Virus record (IMG/VR): IMGVR_UViG_3300021963_000030
Source: a virus
DNA: 64,000 bases
Strand: one strand, 5' to 3'
The notes beneath the pieces are model-generated. The model searched no databases, was not told the origin of the DNA, and saw only the letters and a program-made list of their open reading frames with translations. The translations under genes were made by a program, and so were the position numbers. Position 1 is the stretch's first letter. Each line of letters starts with the position of its first letter. Shown here piece after piece: positions 18 through 4,394 of this stretch.

Positions 18-95
18 GGCTACGTAGACCAATTGGGAGGAGTCGTCTATCTCAAAAATAGAATAGTGCTGGTTCGAATCCAGTCGTAGCTACCA
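18..95 (+). tRNA. tRNA-Leu(CAA), short variable loop
   Basis: Acceptor GGCTACG/CGTAGCT, anticodon arm TCTAT-CTCAAAA-ATAGA, T-loop TTCGAAT, A73, encoded CCA. Confidence 0.9.
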
Positions 96-103
96 ATTTT
101 AAC

Positions 104-188
104 GGGTGTGTGGATGAGGGAAACTGGAACAACCGCAATACTTAAAATATTGTATCCTCTGTAAGTTCGAATCTTACCACACCTACCA
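104..188 (+). tRNA. tRNA-Leu(TAA), long D-loop, no paired variable arm
   Basis: Acceptor GGGTGTG/CACACCT, anticodon arm CAATA-CTTAAAA-TATTG, T-arm GTAAG-TTCGAAT-CTTAC, CCA. Confidence 0.9.
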
Positions 189-194
189 ATTTAT

Positions 195-272
195 GGGCTG
201 GCATGTTCTAAGGCTAAGCGAGACTGATTTGCAATCAATCTGATGTGAGTTCGATTCTCACCTGGTCCACCA
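195..272 (+). tRNA. tRNA-Ala(TGC) copy 1
   Basis: Anticodon loop TT-TGC-AA, G3:U70 alanine identity pair in GGGCTGG/CTGGTCC, T-loop TTCGATT, A-CCA. Confidence 0.85.
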
Positions 273-281
273 ATTTCAAAA

Positions 282-346
282 GTGACTATAAAATCATATT
301 CGGTCGTATGATCATTGAGTGTAATTGACCTTTCGGGTGTAGTCAC
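282..346 (+). ncRNA. Candidate small cloverleaf-like structured RNA or tRNA remnant
   Basis: 9-bp closing stem GTGACTATA/TGTAGTCAC, inner hairpins ATCATA/TATGAT and ACC-TTTCG-GGT; no CCA and no clear anticodon loop. Confidence 0.4.
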
Positions 347-364
347 ACATACCCAGATTTTTAT

Positions 365-452
365 GGAAGTAGTCCGGTTGGTCGAGGAAAGCGTCTTGAA
401 AACGCCTGGGGCCTAAAAACCCTCGCAGGTTCGACTCCTGCTGCTTCCGCCA
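365..452 (+). tRNA. tRNA-Ser(TGA)
   Basis: Acceptor GGAAGTA/TGCTTCC, G73, loop CT-TGA-AA, long variable arm, T-loop TTCGACT, CCA. Confidence 0.95.
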
Positions 453-458
453 TTTTTT

Positions 459-551
459 GGAAGGTAGACGAATAGTTAGGTAGTCGTAGCAGTTTGCTAA
501 ACTGCCGGGGCCTAAAAACCCCTGAGGGGGCAGCACCCTCACCTTCCGCCA
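459..551 (+). tRNA. tRNA-Ser(GCT) with non-canonical T-loop GGCAGCA
   Basis: Anticodon arm GCAGT-TTGCTAA-ACTGC, long variable arm, T-stem GAGGG/CCCTC, G-CCA. Confidence 0.9.
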
Positions 552-557
552 CTTTAT

Positions 558-632
558 GGGCTCTTGGTGCTAGTGGTAACACGGCTGATTTGCATTCAGC
601 AGTCGCCAGTTCGACTCTGGCAGGGTCCACCA
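558..632 (+). tRNA. tRNA-Ala(TGC) copy 2
   Basis: Anticodon arm GCTGA-TTTGCAT-TCAGC, G3:U70, T-loop TTCGACT, A-CCA. Confidence 0.9.
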
Positions 633-642
633 ATTTAATGAC

Positions 643-716
643 GCGGGTGTGATGTAACGGTAGCCTACATCCTTGCCAAGGACGATGAGAGGGTTCGATT
701 CCCTCCACCCGCTCCA
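643..716 (+). tRNA. tRNA-Gly(GCC)
   Basis: Acceptor GCGGGTG/CACCCGC, U73, loop TT-GCC-AA, T-loop TTCGATT, CCA. Confidence 0.95.
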
Positions 717-731
717 ATTTAATAAAAATAT

Positions 732-854
732 ATGCCAAATAGAACATCGCATTATAGAAAGACGCATACTAGAAAAACAAAAAGTGGAAAAACCGTTAGG
801 GTTAATTCTACACAAGTAAAAGGTAGTTCAACAAAGCGTCGAAAGAAAAAGTAA
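732..854 (+). CDS. 40-aa highly basic peptide MPNRTSHYRKTHTRKTKSGKTVRVNSTQVKGSSTKRRKKK (not in the ORF track)
   Basis: ATG..TAA ORF that fills the spacer between tRNA-Gly and tRNA-Gln; similar to the peptide at 3769-3867. Confidence 0.7.
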   Translation: MPNRTSHYRKTHTRKTKSGKTVRVNSTQVKGSSTKRRKKK

Positions 855-863
855 GTTTTCAAC

Positions 864-937
864 TGGGGATTTGCATAATGGTAGTGCAGGAGACTTTGGA
901 TCTCTTAGTGAAGGTTCGATTCCTTCATCCCCTGCCA
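864..937 (+). tRNA. tRNA-Gln(TTG) copy 1, canonical elbow
   Basis: TGGGGAT/ATCCCCT, G73, loop CT-TTG-GA, D-loop AATGGTA, T-loop TTCGATT. Confidence 0.9.
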
Positions 938-944
938 ATTTTAT

Positions 945-1020
945 CGGGATGTAATGTCAAAAGTAGACGGCCTGTTTTGGAGACAGGAGGTTGAGATTGC
1001 AAAATTCTCCATCCCGACCA
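945..1020 (+). tRNA. tRNA-Pro(TGG) with A37 and non-canonical T-loop TGCAAAA
   Basis: Acceptor CGGGATG/CATCCCG, anticodon arm CCTGT-TTTGGAG-ACAGG, A-CCA. Confidence 0.9.
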
Positions 1021-1030
1021 TTTTATTAAC

Positions 1031-1105
1031 TGGGGATTGATTGTAATAGTAGCAAATCAGACTTTGAATCTGAGAGCATCGGAGCGTAACCGGTATCCCC
1101 TGCCA
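1031..1105 (+). tRNA. tRNA-Gln(TTG) copy 2 with non-canonical T-loop AGCGTAA
   Basis: TGGGGAT/ATCCCCT, anticodon arm TCAGA-CTTTGAA-TCTGA, T-stem ATCGG/CCGGT, G-CCA. Confidence 0.9.
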
Positions 1106-1108
1106 TTT

Positions 1109-1350
1109 TTTGACACAAGCGACTCTACGCTGGTGTAAATAACACTAGAGGAAGTTCGCTGCTGCACAGCAGATGATTGGGAGACTTAAACGTCGTTAAC
1201 ACCACAAATTAGCAGTAATCCTAAATAACCCGAGTGTAGTGCTGCACGTTGAAGGGTGAGGTTGGAGCAGTTGTTTTTAACGAACAACCAGTAGCAATAC
1301 TGAGAGAAATGTAGGGATAAAACAGAACAGCGGCTATGGCTGTGTCAAAA
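1109..1350 (+). ncRNA. rnpB: Compact RNase P RNA (phage-encoded)
   Basis: P1 TTTGACACA..TGTGTCAAA; P2 CTCTAC(1123-1128)/GTAGGG(1311-1316); P3 TGGTGT/ACACTA; CR-I GAGGAAGTTCGCTG pairs with CR-V ACAGAACAGCGGCT to form P4 with the bulged U; CR-IV-like AGAGAAAT; GCAA tetraloop hairpin. Confidence 0.85.
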
Positions 1351-1399
1351 CATCTTCTTAAAAAGAAAAATGTGACTACTTATTCTGTAGTAACATACT

Positions 1400-2116
1400 A
1401 TGAAATTAGCATATCAATACGACGAAGATTTCGTTCCGCTAAAAGATAACTTTTTAAAAAACATTCATGACGAATTTGAGTTTATAGAAAAAAAACTTGA
1501 AAAACCTAAATTTTCTCAGGGTGCTACACAATCAGACCAGTTTGGTGGTGGTATAGATTATTGGATTGGAAACACAAAATATCTATTGAACATAATAAAT
1601 TCATGTGAACCCAATGAATACTTTATGTTTTCCGACGTTGATATTGTATTTTTTAAACCAATATTGCCTACTATAAATAAACTAATTAGTGACAATAGTT
1701 ATGATGCTTTATTCTCCAGAGAGATTCCATATGGGGAAGTTCCATGGCAAGGTGGTGATGTTCCTGGAAATATCAACTTTGGTTTTTTTGTAATGAAGGC
1801 TTGTGATCGATCAAGAAGATTTTTGGAAGAGTTATTAATATCGATTGAAAAAAATAGAATACTAAATCAAGTTATAGTTAATAAGTTATTGTATGGTTCT
1901 CCTAAATATAATCTTAATTGGAATCTACTGCCGATAGAGTTTACCACTACAAATTTTTTTGGGCCCGTATTACCAACTGACTTTAATAAGGATCATGCTC
2001 TTGTTAATAAAAATTCTTTAACATTTCATGCAATCTATCCGATTGATCCGTATGAAAAAATGAAGTTATTGAAACTTGCAATTGATACTGTGAATAAAGA
2101 TGAAAATAGTAATTAA
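1400..2116 (+). CDS. Nucleotide-diphospho-sugar transferase (GT-A fold, GT77-like)
   Basis: FSDVDIVF DxD motif, INFGFFVMK strand and NQVIVN helix typical of this family. Confidence 0.7.
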   Translation: MKLAYQYDEDFVPLKDNFLKNIHDEFEFIEKKLEKPKFSQGATQSDQFGGGIDYWIGNTKYLLNIINSCEPNEYFMFSDVDIVFFKPILPTINKLISDNSYDALFSREIPYGEVPWQGGDVPGNINFGFFVMKACDRSRRFLEELLISIEKNRILNQVIVNKLLYGSPKYNLNWNLLPIEFTTTNFFGPVLPTDFNKDHALVNKNSLTFHAIYPIDPYEKMKLLKLAIDTVNKDENSN

Positions 2117-2807
2117 TTCAAATATAAGTTACAAATTACCATTAAAATTGCTTTTGGAGTCAATTTTAAAGTCTGATATTAAAAACATATCCGATGTTAT
2201 TGTAGTATTATCCGAGTCAGATCGAGAATCTACACCCGAATTAAAAGAAATAAATTCAATAACGGACATAGATTCATCAGAAAAAGTAGTAGTGATTGAG
2301 TCTGTCAGAAGAAATTATGATTATTGTGGGTTTGACGTATTATACAAATATTATGGTAATAAACTAATTGACTCAAATGAGTATTTGTATTTACACGATA
2401 CTTCCACGGTTGACTCTGATTTTTATAGTAAAATTACCAAGTTTGCAGACCTATCAGAAGATGTAATTATTTCGCCATTGAAGCAAAATTCAAATATTAT
2501 CATCTTTCAGAAGAACATCATCACAAAATACAAAGATAATTTTAGTGTTGATATGAACAAGTATCAAGCAACGTGGGCAGAAGTTTCCGATGGTGTTTTT
2601 GTAGATAATAAATGGGTGACAAATATTTTAAAATTCGGTGTTGTGAAATCTGTCGATGAACGTGTATTGACTGGAAATACGGATGTATACAATACGGGGT
2701 GTTATAGATCCATCTTATACTACAAAGATTTTGGTATAAGCAAGTATATATTCTGGAATAATGATGGTGATGTAAAAGGAAAATTAAGAGGGCCTACGTT
2801 ATCATAA
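2100..2807 (+). CDS. Glycosyltransferase-like protein
   Basis: GT-A-like N-terminus (KIVINSNISY), YLYLHDT motif; overlaps the upstream GT gene. Confidence 0.45.
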   Translation: MKIVINSNISYKLPLKLLLESILKSDIKNISDVIVVLSESDRESTPELKEINSITDIDSSEKVVVIESVRRNYDYCGFDVLYKYYGNKLIDSNEYLYLHDTSTVDSDFYSKITKFADLSEDVIISPLKQNSNIIIFQKNIITKYKDNFSVDMNKYQATWAEVSDGVFVDNKWVTNILKFGVVKSVDERVLTGNTDVYNTGCYRSILYYKDFGISKYIFWNNDGDVKGKLRGPTLS

Positions 2808-2810
2808 TCT

Positions 2811-2897
2811 TGTGGTGGTTTGGCCACAGCGTGAGGGACACGATACACCCCTGTATGTCTGACCCGGACGAATCTGATCCAGATAGGATAGGGTTGA
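2811..2897 (+). ncRNA. Candidate structured intergenic or leader RNA
   Basis: GC-richer than its flanks; hairpins TGTGGT/GCCACA, GGG/CCC, GTC/GAC and ATCTG/CAGAT. Confidence 0.3.
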
Positions 2898-2907
2898 ATT
2901 TAAAGTT

Positions 2908-3267
2908 ATGAATAATACAAATAGATTACATATTGTGCCCAAAGGATGGGGATTTGAAAAGTGGATTGTCAACAACGAAAAGTATTGCGGCAAGATTCTG
3001 TATCTTGTCAAAGACCGTAAGTGTAGTTGGCATTATCACAAGGTCAAAGATGAAACCTTTTATGTTCAAAGTGGTAAAATTGAATTACGTTATGGTAAAC
3101 ATGATGATATCAAAATGTCTACGTCTGTGATTTTAAACAAGGGTGACCATTTTCATATTCCAATTGGATTAAAGCATCAAATGTATGCTATTGAGGATAC
3201 TGAACTATTTGAGTTTAGCACCCAACATTTTGACGAAGATAGCATTCGTCTTGAAAAGGGAGATTAA
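2908..3267 (+). CDS. Cupin-fold sugar isomerase-like protein
   Basis: KGWGFEKWI..CSWHYHKVKDETFYV and HIPIGLKHQM cupin metal-binding motifs. Confidence 0.8.
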   Translation: MNNTNRLHIVPKGWGFEKWIVNNEKYCGKILYLVKDRKCSWHYHKVKDETFYVQSGKIELRYGKHDDIKMSTSVILNKGDHFHIPIGLKHQMYAIEDTELFEFSTQHFDEDSIRLEKGD

Positions 3268-3272
3268 AAATT

Positions 3273-3399
3273 TGATCATTGGTGTATAGAATTAACGCAC
3301 ACTACCTATTAGCTGGTAGAGGAGATGGAAGTTGACGGGTTAGACAGTAAGAGGAACGTTTCGTGAAATCCCCGTATATTCGCAAGTCATGGTCATCCA
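3273..3399 (+). ncRNA. 127-nt tRNA-like RNA with acceptor stem and CCA end but an expanded 3' half
   Basis: TGATCAT/ATGGTCA 7-bp stem followed by T-CCA, D-like arm GTGT/ACGC, CTACC/GGTAG arm, long insert closed by ACGGG/CCCGT. Confidence 0.55.
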
Positions 3400-3407
3400 A
3401 TTTGTAG

Positions 3408-3435
3408 TTGACAAAGTAAAAAAACGTGGTAAACT
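3408..3435 (+). promoter_or_regulatory. Sigma70-type promoter
   Basis: TTGACA-16 nt-TAAACT with TG upstream of the -10 box. Confidence 0.7.
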
Positions 3436-3441
3436 AGTGTT

Positions 3442-3669
3442 ATGAAAAAGATGATTGTGTCGTTGATTTTGATTGGCAACGTTCTAATTGCTAGTGAAGT
3501 TATCAAGGAAGTAAAGATCGAACCTATCACGGTTTACGTTGTCCGTAATGGTGATTCGGATCGATCAATTCATAAAGTTTTTTTGACAGAGAAGTCAGCT
3601 AAGAAGTATTGTGATACATACAAGGAAAGTCACAATTATGAATGTGAAGTTCTTGTGTTGACCGAATAA
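3442..3669 (+). CDS. Small protein with a signal-peptide-like N-terminus
   Basis: MKKMIVSLILIGNVLIA hydrophobic leader; directly downstream of a promoter. Confidence 0.7.
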   Translation: MKKMIVSLILIGNVLIASEVIKEVKIEPITVYVVRNGDSDRSIHKVFLTEKSAKKYCDTYKESHNYECEVLVLTE

Positions 3670-3682
3670 TACTTATTAGTGT

Positions 3683-3756
3683 GCGGGAGTGATGTAACGG
3701 TAGCCTGGGGCTCTTCCAAAGCCCACGAAAGGGTTCGATTCCCTTTTCCCGCTCCA
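3683..3756 (+). tRNA. tRNA-Gly(TCC)
   Basis: GCGGGAG/TTCCCGC, U73, anticodon arm GGGCT-CTTCCAA-AGCCC, T-loop TTCGATT, CCA. Confidence 0.95.
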
Positions 3757-3768
3757 CTTTTAAATATT

Positions 3769-3867
3769 ATGGCAACTAAAGGAATGAGACGACAACACTT
3801 ACGTAAAACCAAAAAAGGTTATTGCAATGTTAAAAGTTGTAGTGTAAAAAAGCGTAAGAAGAAGTAA
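3769..3867 (+). CDS. 32-aa highly basic peptide MATKGMRRQHLRKTKKGYCNVKSCSVKKRKKK
   Basis: ATG at 3769 after tRNA-Gly(TCC); the longer ORF-track call overlaps the tRNA; paralog of 732-854. Confidence 0.7.
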   Translation: MATKGMRRQHLRKTKKGYCNVKSCSVKKRKKK

Positions 3868-3873
3868 TTTAAT

Positions 3874-3945
3874 GGCTGGGGTTTCAGCAAACGACGAATC
3901 CTCATAAGGTTTGTTAAGTGGGGGCAGCACCCATACCAGCTACCA
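3874..3945 (+). tRNA. Atypical tRNA with CAT anticodon (Met or Ile2)
   Basis: Acceptor GGCTGG/CCAGCT, mini D-arm GTTT-CAGC-AAAC, 8-bp anticodon stem around CT-CAT-AA, T-loop GGCAGCA, A-CCA. Confidence 0.75.
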
Positions 3946-3968
3946 TTTTTTGTTCTTTAAAATTTAAT

Positions 3969-4353
3969 GGGCGTGTTCAGGTTTCGATTTAAGGATGCGT
4001 TCATGCTAGGCACGTAGAGGATGATAGTTGGCCTCTTTAAACGTCTATCAAAACATAACTGCTGAAGAAAACGTAGTTAGCTATGACTTCTCTTACGAGA
4101 ACACCGTAGCACTTGCAGCCTAATTAAAGGTCGCACATTTGATCAATGATTGTTCGATAGTTGATTGAATGTTATTATCGGACTATAATTGGAATGATTG
4201 ATTTGCTCATCCAATCTACCTACTTGTAAATCTTAAGAAACAAATTTTTGATGATTTAGATTTTGTTTCCTATCAAATACAAATCATACAAGCGTGTAGT
4301 CTGGTATGGATCACTTCTTAAAGACGCGAGTTCGATTCTCGCCACGTCCACCA
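3969..4353 (+). ncRNA. ssrA: tmRNA with tag peptide (A)AEENVVSYDFSYENTVALAA
   Basis: Acceptor GGGCGTG/CACGTCC with G3:U70, T-arm GCGAG-TTCGATT-CTCGC, ACCA end, resume context ATAACT-GCT at 4061, tag ORF ending ALAA-TAA at 4123. Confidence 0.95.
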
Positions 4354-4362
4354 TTTTTATTA

Positions 4363-4394
4363 AAAGACCCAAGCATAAACTTGGGTCTTTTTTT
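4363..4394. terminator. Intrinsic terminator after tmRNA, probably bidirectional
   Basis: AAGACCCAAG/CTTGGGTCTT hairpin with a T tract downstream and an A tract upstream. Confidence 0.85.

Follow-up and report, generated by a model that had tools for sequence, protein, structure and literature searches.

A miniature RNase P RNA in the tRNA and tmRNA island of a T4-like phage, and its distribution relative to tRNAs with a rewired elbow

RNA genes at the locus

The window analysed here is the whole of a 64,000-nucleotide (nt) stretch of viral DNA (IMG/VR record IMGVR_UViG_3300021963_000030), in which a large terminase, a major head protein, a baseplate wedge protein, tail-fibre proteins and PhoH are encoded and which is part of a T4-like myophage. 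Positions 18–4353 hold an RNA island of 13 CCA-ending transfer RNA (tRNA) or tRNA-like genes, a transfer-messenger RNA (tmRNA) and a ribonuclease P (RNase P)-like RNA. The present work concerns this last RNA and its relation to those tRNAs of the island that have a rewired elbow, with A at position 18 of the D-loop and G at position 55 of the T-loop (A18/G55).

An encoded CCA closes all 13 tRNA or tRNA-like genes and the tmRNA. Between 18 and 4353 ARAGORN reported seven tRNAs and the tmRNA, and Rfam at a relaxed threshold added tRNAs at 104–185 (41.7 bits) and 1032–1102 (36.8 bits); the remaining CCA-ending genes were identified by reading of the sequence, a simple cloverleaf scanner and minimum free energy (MFE) folds. 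Nine of the 13 were recognised by ARAGORN or Rfam, three as cloverleaves only, and one is a tRNA-like RNA of 127 nt. An earlier note on this DNA had counted 13 CCA-encoding tRNAs, several of them deviant, and the combination of ARAGORN, Rfam, cloverleaf scan and MFE folds confirmed this. The single island that it described is interrupted by about 2.2 kb of protein genes (1400–2807, 2908–3267 and 3442–3669). The island is 75–98% identical to that of the close relatives L036, L046 and L380/L142.

Sequence and fold of the miniature RNase P RNA

The RNase P gene follows directly on a tRNA gene, its P1 helix beginning 7 nt past the CCA of the tRNA-Gln at 1031..1105.

1112..1346, + strand: miniature RNase P RNA of 235 nt, recognised by its viral family, by covariation and by alignment to Escherichia coli rnpB

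The segments GAGGAAGUUCGCUG (1148–1161) and ACAGAACAGCGGCU (1323–1336) are able to pair as P4, with U1155 bulged out, and the helices P1, P2 and P3 can be placed around this pseudoknot. The RNA is completed by P5, by P15/P16, whose J16/15 is rich in G, and by two hairpins, the second of which carries a GCAA loop, like P18. No RNase P family was listed by Rfam, either at the gathering threshold or at E≤10, with 5 kb or with a 306-nt query (1095–1400).

Relatives were sought with a pattern of 24 specified bases from the motifs of conserved regions I and V (CR-I and CR-V), separated by a gap of 140–170 nt. The pattern matched 23 IMG/VR viral contigs and, in 185,579 cellular species genomes, a single contig, L379 (JAAXWV010000224.1, 3053 nt). 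The L379 contig is binned to a metagenome-assembled genome of Candidatus Roizmanbacteria and may be a mis-binned phage fragment. Five more viral members (L036, L046, L101, L296 and L380) came from nhmmer and CR-V motif searches, and a sixth extra match, L074, is partial and has neither the CR-I nor the CR-V motif.

The structure was tested with pairs assigned by hand on a MAFFT alignment of 21 distinct sequences. The hand-drawn structure had 84.5% of its cells paired, compared to 34–47% when the 3′ partners were slid; the covariation score was 0.475 against about 0.09 in the slid controls, and none of 500 shuffles reached any of the observed measures. The paired fraction was 92% for P2, 95% for P3, 98% for P15 and 100% for P4 and P5. 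P1, which is poorly aligned by MAFFT, was 44% paired in the alignment and is perfect in the window. Double changes were seen in 49 of 62 pairs, with many of them in both P2 and P3. The eight pairs of P4 include two outside the search pattern, which covary completely, and compensatory changes were also found at positions fixed by the pattern (CGAUG/CAUCG in L036, CGGGA/UCCCG in L296). P15 covaries across the family (CCAAA/UUGG, CCUAA/UUAGG, CUCAA/UUGAG) and is preceded on its 5′ side by a conserved GGG (GAGG in the window). By analogy with the GGU of RNase P RNA, which pairs with the RCCA end of the substrate (PMC11143913), we infer that this GGG would pair with the 3′ CCA of a precursor.

Invariant blocks in the 21 sequences are CR-I, J18/2 and CR-V, with the core nucleotides GAGGAAGUUCGC and ACAGAA..GCGGCUA. 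When aligned to E. coli rnpB (taken from NC_000913.3), the window RNA matched at CR-I (61–82), at the J5/15–P15 strand (243–258) and at J18/2–CR-V–P1 (328–373), with one A fewer in CR-I and one U fewer in CR-V. The stretch 1112..1346 belongs to a real RNA family; viral relatives, covariation and the rnpB alignment all confirm the RNase P-like RNA that had been noted in the island. The miniature RNA has kept the bacterial-type catalytic domain (C-domain) in full, including the joiners J18/2 and J2/4.

The specificity domain (S-domain) is mostly lost, as the earlier note had claimed. What is left is a stub of 46 nt (1166–1211) between the strands of P5 and not one of about 66 nt, since P5 is formed by CUGC/GCAG (1162–1165/1212–1215), all four pairs of which covary. 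A pairing of 1161–1167 with 1234–1240 as P5/P7 was rejected in favour of this helix. Across the family the stub measures 42–85 nt, and a CR-II/CR-III motif was sought in the family consensus and not found. The segment AAGGGUGAGG (around 1252), which resembles CR-II of the E. coli S-domain, was not counted as S-domain; the consensus and the covariation of P15 place it in P16/J16/15. In the relatives L036 (9061–9363), L046 (10321–10573) and L380 (1493–1795) the same RNase P RNA has a stub hairpin that is 75–100 nt longer, and the RNA of L046 has a further insertion of about 90 nt in the P18 region. From these sequences, the stub hairpin appears to be an insertion hot spot.

Distribution and gene context of the family

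Twenty-six distinct RNase P loci were examined, 22 of which held tRNAs. In all 22 the RNase P gene lay on the same strand as the flanking tRNAs, often at most 20 nt from one of them, and the surrounding arrays reached 36 tRNAs. A tmRNA was present in five of the 26 loci. In L006 ARAGORN predicted an amber suppressor tRNA (anticodon CUA, with the label Pyl) at 3197–3272, 19 nt downstream of the RNase P gene, and this tRNA may point to stop-codon recoding in that phage.

A search for the protein subunit RnpA (PF00825) was negative in all ten phage records examined that carry the RNase P gene, of which three have a completeness of 94% or more, and positive in ten control bacteria. The proposal of a joint tRNA, RNase P and tmRNA system, made in the earlier note, is upheld to the extent that the three classes belong together functionally, as indicated by the consistent co-orientation. 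It does not stand as a self-contained system, because RnpA is encoded by none of the ten records, nor as a matched pair of ribozyme and tRNAs (see below).

tRNA genes and the A18/G55 elbow

The tRNA genes of the island are as follows.

18..95, + strand: tRNA-Leu(CAA) with canonical T-loop and encoded CCA (ARAGORN; Rfam, 54 bits)
104..188, + strand: tRNA-Leu(UAA)-like, with canonical T-loop UUCGAAU and encoded CCA (Rfam match at 104–185; missed by ARAGORN)
195..272, + strand: tRNA-Ala(UGC)-like, carrying G3-U70; the T-arm is canonical, the D and anticodon arms are weak (ARAGORN only)
365..452, + strand: tRNA-Ser(UGA) with canonical elbow (ARAGORN)
459..551, + strand: tRNA-Ser(GCU) with variant T-loop GGCAGCA (G54, G55, C56; cloverleaf score 21, MFE cloverleaf z = −3.5)
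558..632, + strand: tRNA-Ala(UGC), canonical (ARAGORN, Rfam)
643..716, + strand: tRNA-Gly(GCC), canonical (ARAGORN, Rfam)
864..937, + strand: tRNA-Gln(UUG) with canonical elbow, D-loop AAUGGUA and T-loop UUCGAUU (ARAGORN, Rfam, cloverleaf scan)
945..1020, + strand: tRNA-Pro(UGG) with A18/G55 elbow, D-loop AAAAGUA and T-loop UGCAAAA (cloverleaf scan, MFE fold)
1031..1105, + strand: second tRNA-Gln(UUG), A18/G55 with an A54-U58 swap, D-loop AAUAGUA and T-loop AGCGUAA (Rfam; cloverleaf)
3683..3756, + strand: tRNA-Gly(UCC), canonical (ARAGORN, Rfam)
3874..3945, + strand: atypical 72-nt tRNA(CAU) with T-loop GGCAGCA (parsed by hand; MFE fold is a cloverleaf)

Three of these genes (459–551, 945–1020 and 3874–3945) were recognised by neither ARAGORN nor Rfam, and all three fold as cloverleaves. 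Two of them are backed by compensatory changes in relatives: in the variable arm of tRNA-Ser(GCU) in L036, and at two acceptor pairs of tRNA-Pro(UGG) in L036 and L380. The third, tRNA(CAU), lacks the 8–9 linker and has a 4-nt D-loop, an anticodon stem of 8 bp and a variable region of 2 nt; it is 100% identical in L036, L046 and L142, where its flanks are 79–90% identical. Its candidate identities are initiator, elongator Met or Ile2. The compensatory changes or perfect conservation in L036, L046 and L380/L142 argue that the tRNA-like genes of the island are under selection. As for the ARAGORN predictions, the tRNA-Ala(UGC)-like gene at 195..272 is kept in L036 and its MFE fold is not a cloverleaf, and the best Rfam match within the clan for the tRNA-Ser(UGA) gene is tRNA-Sec, at 41.6 bits and under its cut-off.

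The substitutions at positions 18 and 55 go together. In the RNase P loci the T55 tRNA-like genes had a GG D-loop in 162 cases and AG without GG in 2, whereas the G55 genes had GG in 4 and AG without GG in 23. Over all fetched loci, 83% of the G55 tRNAs (n=416) had an AG-only D-loop and 93% kept C56; the T55 tRNAs had a GG D-loop in 93%. These counts show that A18/G55 is a true covariation in which the outer G19-C56 pair is preserved, and the recoded elbow of the earlier note is therefore real. The G55 T-loops fall into recurring classes (GGCAGCA, UGCRANN and AGCGUWA). In the window, the canonical tRNA-Gln at 864 and the A18/G55 tRNA-Gln at 1031 share anticodon and acceptor stem and are located just upstream of the ribozyme gene. 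Other recurrent T-loop variants, which keep U55 and a GG D-loop, were seen in the arrays of L002, L003, L005, L007 and L011; they are of an A54-U58 type (AUCGUUA) and, in Glu and His tRNAs, of a G54...G58 type (GUCGGAA).

Co-distribution of the ribozyme and the variant tRNAs

The distribution of the two traits was assessed from three matched scans of viral contigs, two for G55 T-arms (each with at least 120 matches) and one for a canonical T-arm; the canonical control pattern differs from the second G55 pattern at position 55 alone. A18/G55 tRNAs occurred in 7 of 21 RNase P loci versus 10 of 116 control loci (p=0.005), and the G55 share of the tRNAs was 27/206 (13%) versus 16/558 (2.9%). The other 14 RNase P loci hold no A18/G55 tRNA; L005, for instance, has 37 tRNA-like genes near the ribozyme gene and none with G55. 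When loci with at least five tRNAs were compared, the figures were 6/14 for RNase P and 9/41 for control loci (p=0.17). Conversely, an RNase P-like gene was present in 4 of the 105 verified A18/G55 loci among the matches listed and in 1 of 116 controls (p=0.19). Three of the 22 G55-richest loci hold such a gene, one of them partial, and a fourth has one elsewhere on the contig.

Nineteen G55-rich records were also searched over their whole length with the CR-V motif, which was found in all family members with an inspected 3′ part except the partial L074. One of the 19 had the motif, and that one is a close relative of the present phage. The CR-V motif was absent from G011, G012, G019, G021 and G027, which are 92–100% complete and have 5–8 A18/G55 tRNAs in the fetched locus, and G012, when fetched whole, gave no nhmmer match at E≤10. 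The length of the stub (42–85 nt) showed no visible relation to G55 content, and the close relatives have the same variant tRNAs although their stub is 75–100 nt longer.

The earlier note had proposed that ribozyme and recoded tRNAs are a matched orthogonal pair, and had named a lack of co-distribution beforehand as one of the results that would refute this. The distributions do not coincide: the RNase P gene occurs without A18/G55 tRNAs in 14 of 21 loci, and A18/G55 tRNAs occur without the gene in 101 of 105 loci among the matches listed. Strict pairing is refuted by this result. The residual G55 enrichment near the ribozyme gene is weak and is confounded by array size and relatedness.

tmRNA and other RNA elements

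Three further RNA elements were identified in the island.

3969..4353, + strand: tmRNA with tag AEENVVSYDFSYENTVALAA (ARAGORN; Rfam RF00023, 122.6 bits with a cut-off of 47)
3273..3399, + strand: tRNA-like RNA of 127 nt that departs from a standard tRNA; it has an acceptor-like stem of 7 bp and ends in CCA (compensatory change, homologs)
2806..2904, + strand: conserved small RNA-like element, matching no Rfam family (90–95% identity in L046 and L380)

The tmRNA matches RF00023 over its full length and scores above threshold; it has a tRNA-like domain with G3-U70 and CCA, and a tag reading frame whose peptide ends in ALAA. The acceptor stem of the 127-nt RNA shows a compensatory change from A-U to G-C in relatives; homologs, which vary in the middle part, were found in L027, L036, L045, L060, L085 and L134. 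The element at 2806–2904 (about 100 nt) folds as three hairpins and is probably a conserved small RNA; nhmmer detected two copies of it in L049 and a further homolog in L053. In L046 and L380 it comes straight after the RNase P gene, without the open reading frames (ORFs) of 1400–2807.

Proposed role of the miniature RNase P RNA

Precursors of tRNAs and of tmRNA are classical substrates of RNase P. We favour, with moderate confidence, the reading that the RNA island supports translation in a large T4-like phage, that its modules travel independently and that the miniature RNase P would trim phage precursors. The modules would be the mixed set of canonical and A18/G55 tRNAs, the tmRNA and the phage-specific miniature RNase P RNA. 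The latter would be transcribed together with the tRNA array and would probably be loaded with host RnpA, since the phages encode none. It would then remove the 5′ leaders from phage tRNA and tmRNA precursors that lie close together, with the substrate being read via acceptor stem, leader and 3′ end and not via the elbow. During infection this may raise the capacity for processing or make the phage independent of the host ribozyme. Fold, family, gene context and the lack of co-distribution are results of the analysis, and catalysis, protein partner and benefit are inferred. An active miniature RNA is plausible because bacterial C-domains without an S-domain still cleave pre-tRNA, at lower affinity (PMC11143913). 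The ribozyme of the phages is not specialised for A18/G55 tRNAs, whose processing must be within the reach of ordinary cellular RNase P.

The RNA resembles bacterial type A RNase P RNA (E. coli M1 RNA, encoded by rnpB; RF00010) in P1-P2-P3, the CR-I/CR-V P4 pseudoknot with bulged U, P5, P15/P16, the G-rich strand at the position of G292-G293-U294, the P18-like GNRA hairpin and the joiners J18/2 and J2/4. It is 235 nt long compared to the 377 nt of E. coli M1 RNA, and has the 46-nt stub in place of the S-domain, which in E. coli takes up about 155 nt and includes CR-II, CR-III and the interdigitated T-loops (J11/12-J12/13) on which the tRNA elbow docks. Unlike bacterial rnpB, its gene is carried by phages, lies within tRNA arrays and was not accompanied by rnpA in the ten records searched. 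The archaeal T-type RNA of Thermoproteaceae (Lai et al. 2010, summarised in PMC7191817) has an archaeal C-domain with multi-protein partners, whereas the core of the phage RNA is of bacterial type A, down to the CCA-binding strand of the L15 type; the Rfam T-type model gave no match to the phage RNA. The closest functional model is provided by the engineered mini and micro P RNAs that consist of the C-domain only and cleave pre-tRNA without an S-domain but with weaker binding (PMC11143913). These are laboratory deletions, whereas the phage RNA is a natural, conserved lineage with a conserved stub of its own. Large-phage translation modules, such as that of a megaphage with 74 tRNAs and one tmRNA (PMC8172020), likewise have a long same-strand tRNA array with a tmRNA, and the published descriptions searched mention neither A18/G55 tRNAs nor a gene for RNase P RNA in them. 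In the full-text literature, whose coverage leaves out most subscription journals, no paper on a phage RNase P RNA or on A18/G55 tRNAs was found.

RNase P is generally seen as a housekeeping ribozyme common to all cells. A half-sized, conserved viral RNase P RNA within tRNA arrays would be a new natural architecture, with a bacterial core and almost no specificity domain, and would add a catalytic RNA to the translation parts brought by phages. The rewired elbow is widespread in phage arrays and needs no dedicated processing enzyme; its explanation would thus lie elsewhere, for example in modification enzymes or nucleases that read U54-U55. Its two tRNA-Gln genes just before the ribozyme gene, one canonical and the other A18/G55, make the window well suited to tests.

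Several observations weigh against the favoured reading. CR-I is one A short of GAGGAAAGUCC, which is universal, and P4 lacks an A-U pair that E. coli has; given these changes the chemistry of the phage RNA could differ. The stub has strongly conserved single-stranded nucleotides (GAGA, GUUAnnA), which could still touch the substrate. Several of the RNase P-bearing arrays do not encode CCA, so that pairing to the CCA end cannot be the sole anchor. Finally, A18/G55 tRNAs are weakly enriched near the ribozyme gene, whether loci or tRNAs are counted, although the effect fades once array size is controlled. This residual 3- to 5-fold enrichment would be accounted for if loss of the S-domain had made the enzyme relaxed, so that odd tRNA-shaped RNAs (A18/G55 tRNAs, the 72-nt CAU tRNA, the 127-nt tRNA-like RNA) are permitted, not required, and accumulate in such lineages; we consider this unlikely.

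Equally doubtful is the proposal that the miniature RNase P mainly serves non-standard RNAs (the tmRNA, the 127-nt RNA, the 72-nt CAU tRNA and other small RNAs), which it would tolerate because the distance from acceptor to elbow is no longer measured, and that the host enzyme takes care of the standard tRNAs. The odd RNAs at 3273–3399, 2806–2904 and 3874–3945 are indeed conserved perfectly or by compensatory changes, and two of them directly follow the ribozyme gene in L046 and L380. Many family members, however, reside in ordinary tRNA arrays, 21 of the 26 loci have no tmRNA, and homologs of two of the odd RNAs occur in few loci only.

Still less probable is a role as decoy or regulator, in which the RNA would soak up host RnpA or bind precursors and so re-program host RNA processing. 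The phages encode no RnpA, and any use of the protein would mean competition for that of the host; the altered CR-I, the shortened P4 and the lower substrate affinity expected from the missing S-domain (PMC11143913) fit a decoy as well. A protein sponge would have no need, however, for a catalytic core, bulged U and CCA-binding strand that are invariant across very divergent phages, and the gene is consistently found within co-stranded tRNA arrays.

In the least probable explanation, the A18/G55 tRNAs are the matched partners of an elbow-blind miniature RNase P in an orthogonal pair, which would sustain translation during attacks on the tRNAs or the RNase P of the host: both traits are present in the window, with the A18/G55 tRNA-Gln ending 7 nt before the ribozyme gene, G55 is enriched in RNase P loci and among the 22 G55-richest loci four carry the gene in the locus or on the contig, and mitochondria offer a precedent and logical template, in that elbow-less tRNAs co-occur with RNase P lacking the interdigitated T-loops (PMC4919913), but the phage traits are not co-distributed (14 of the 21 loci with the RNase P gene have canonical elbows throughout, 101 of 105 A18/G55 loci among the matches listed lack that gene, and 18 of 19 G55-rich records searched whole lack the CR-V motif, five of them 92–100% complete), the enrichment is not significant in arrays of at least five tRNAs, stub length is unrelated to G55 content even among close relatives, and the phage tRNAs, unlike the mitochondrial ones, keep the outer G19-C56 face of the elbow, which RNase P reads by stacking and not sequence-specifically (PMC4919913).

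Protein genes and boundaries of the island

Of the protein genes that interrupt the island, the blocks 1400–2807 and 2908–3267 are missing at those positions in close relatives.

1400..2807, + strand: two ORFs of 238 and 235 amino acids amid the RNA genes, the first a nucleotide-diphospho-sugar transferase (Pfam PF03407)
4362..4391, + strand: intrinsic terminator ending the island

In the window, 1400–3267 holds two glycosyltransferase-like ORFs and a cupin ORF amid RNA genes that are contiguous in L046 and L380, and these ORFs look like insertions into the RNA island. The small ORFs beside the island gave no Pfam match. When the island was compared by blastn with 50,697 phage records, only the cyanophage cupin gene was found, plus weak matches; the cupin ORF has about 70% nucleotide identity to genes of T4-like cyanophages. 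A search with the neighbouring glycosyltransferase yielded one relative, without tRNAs. The terminator consists of a 12-bp stem followed by a T run.

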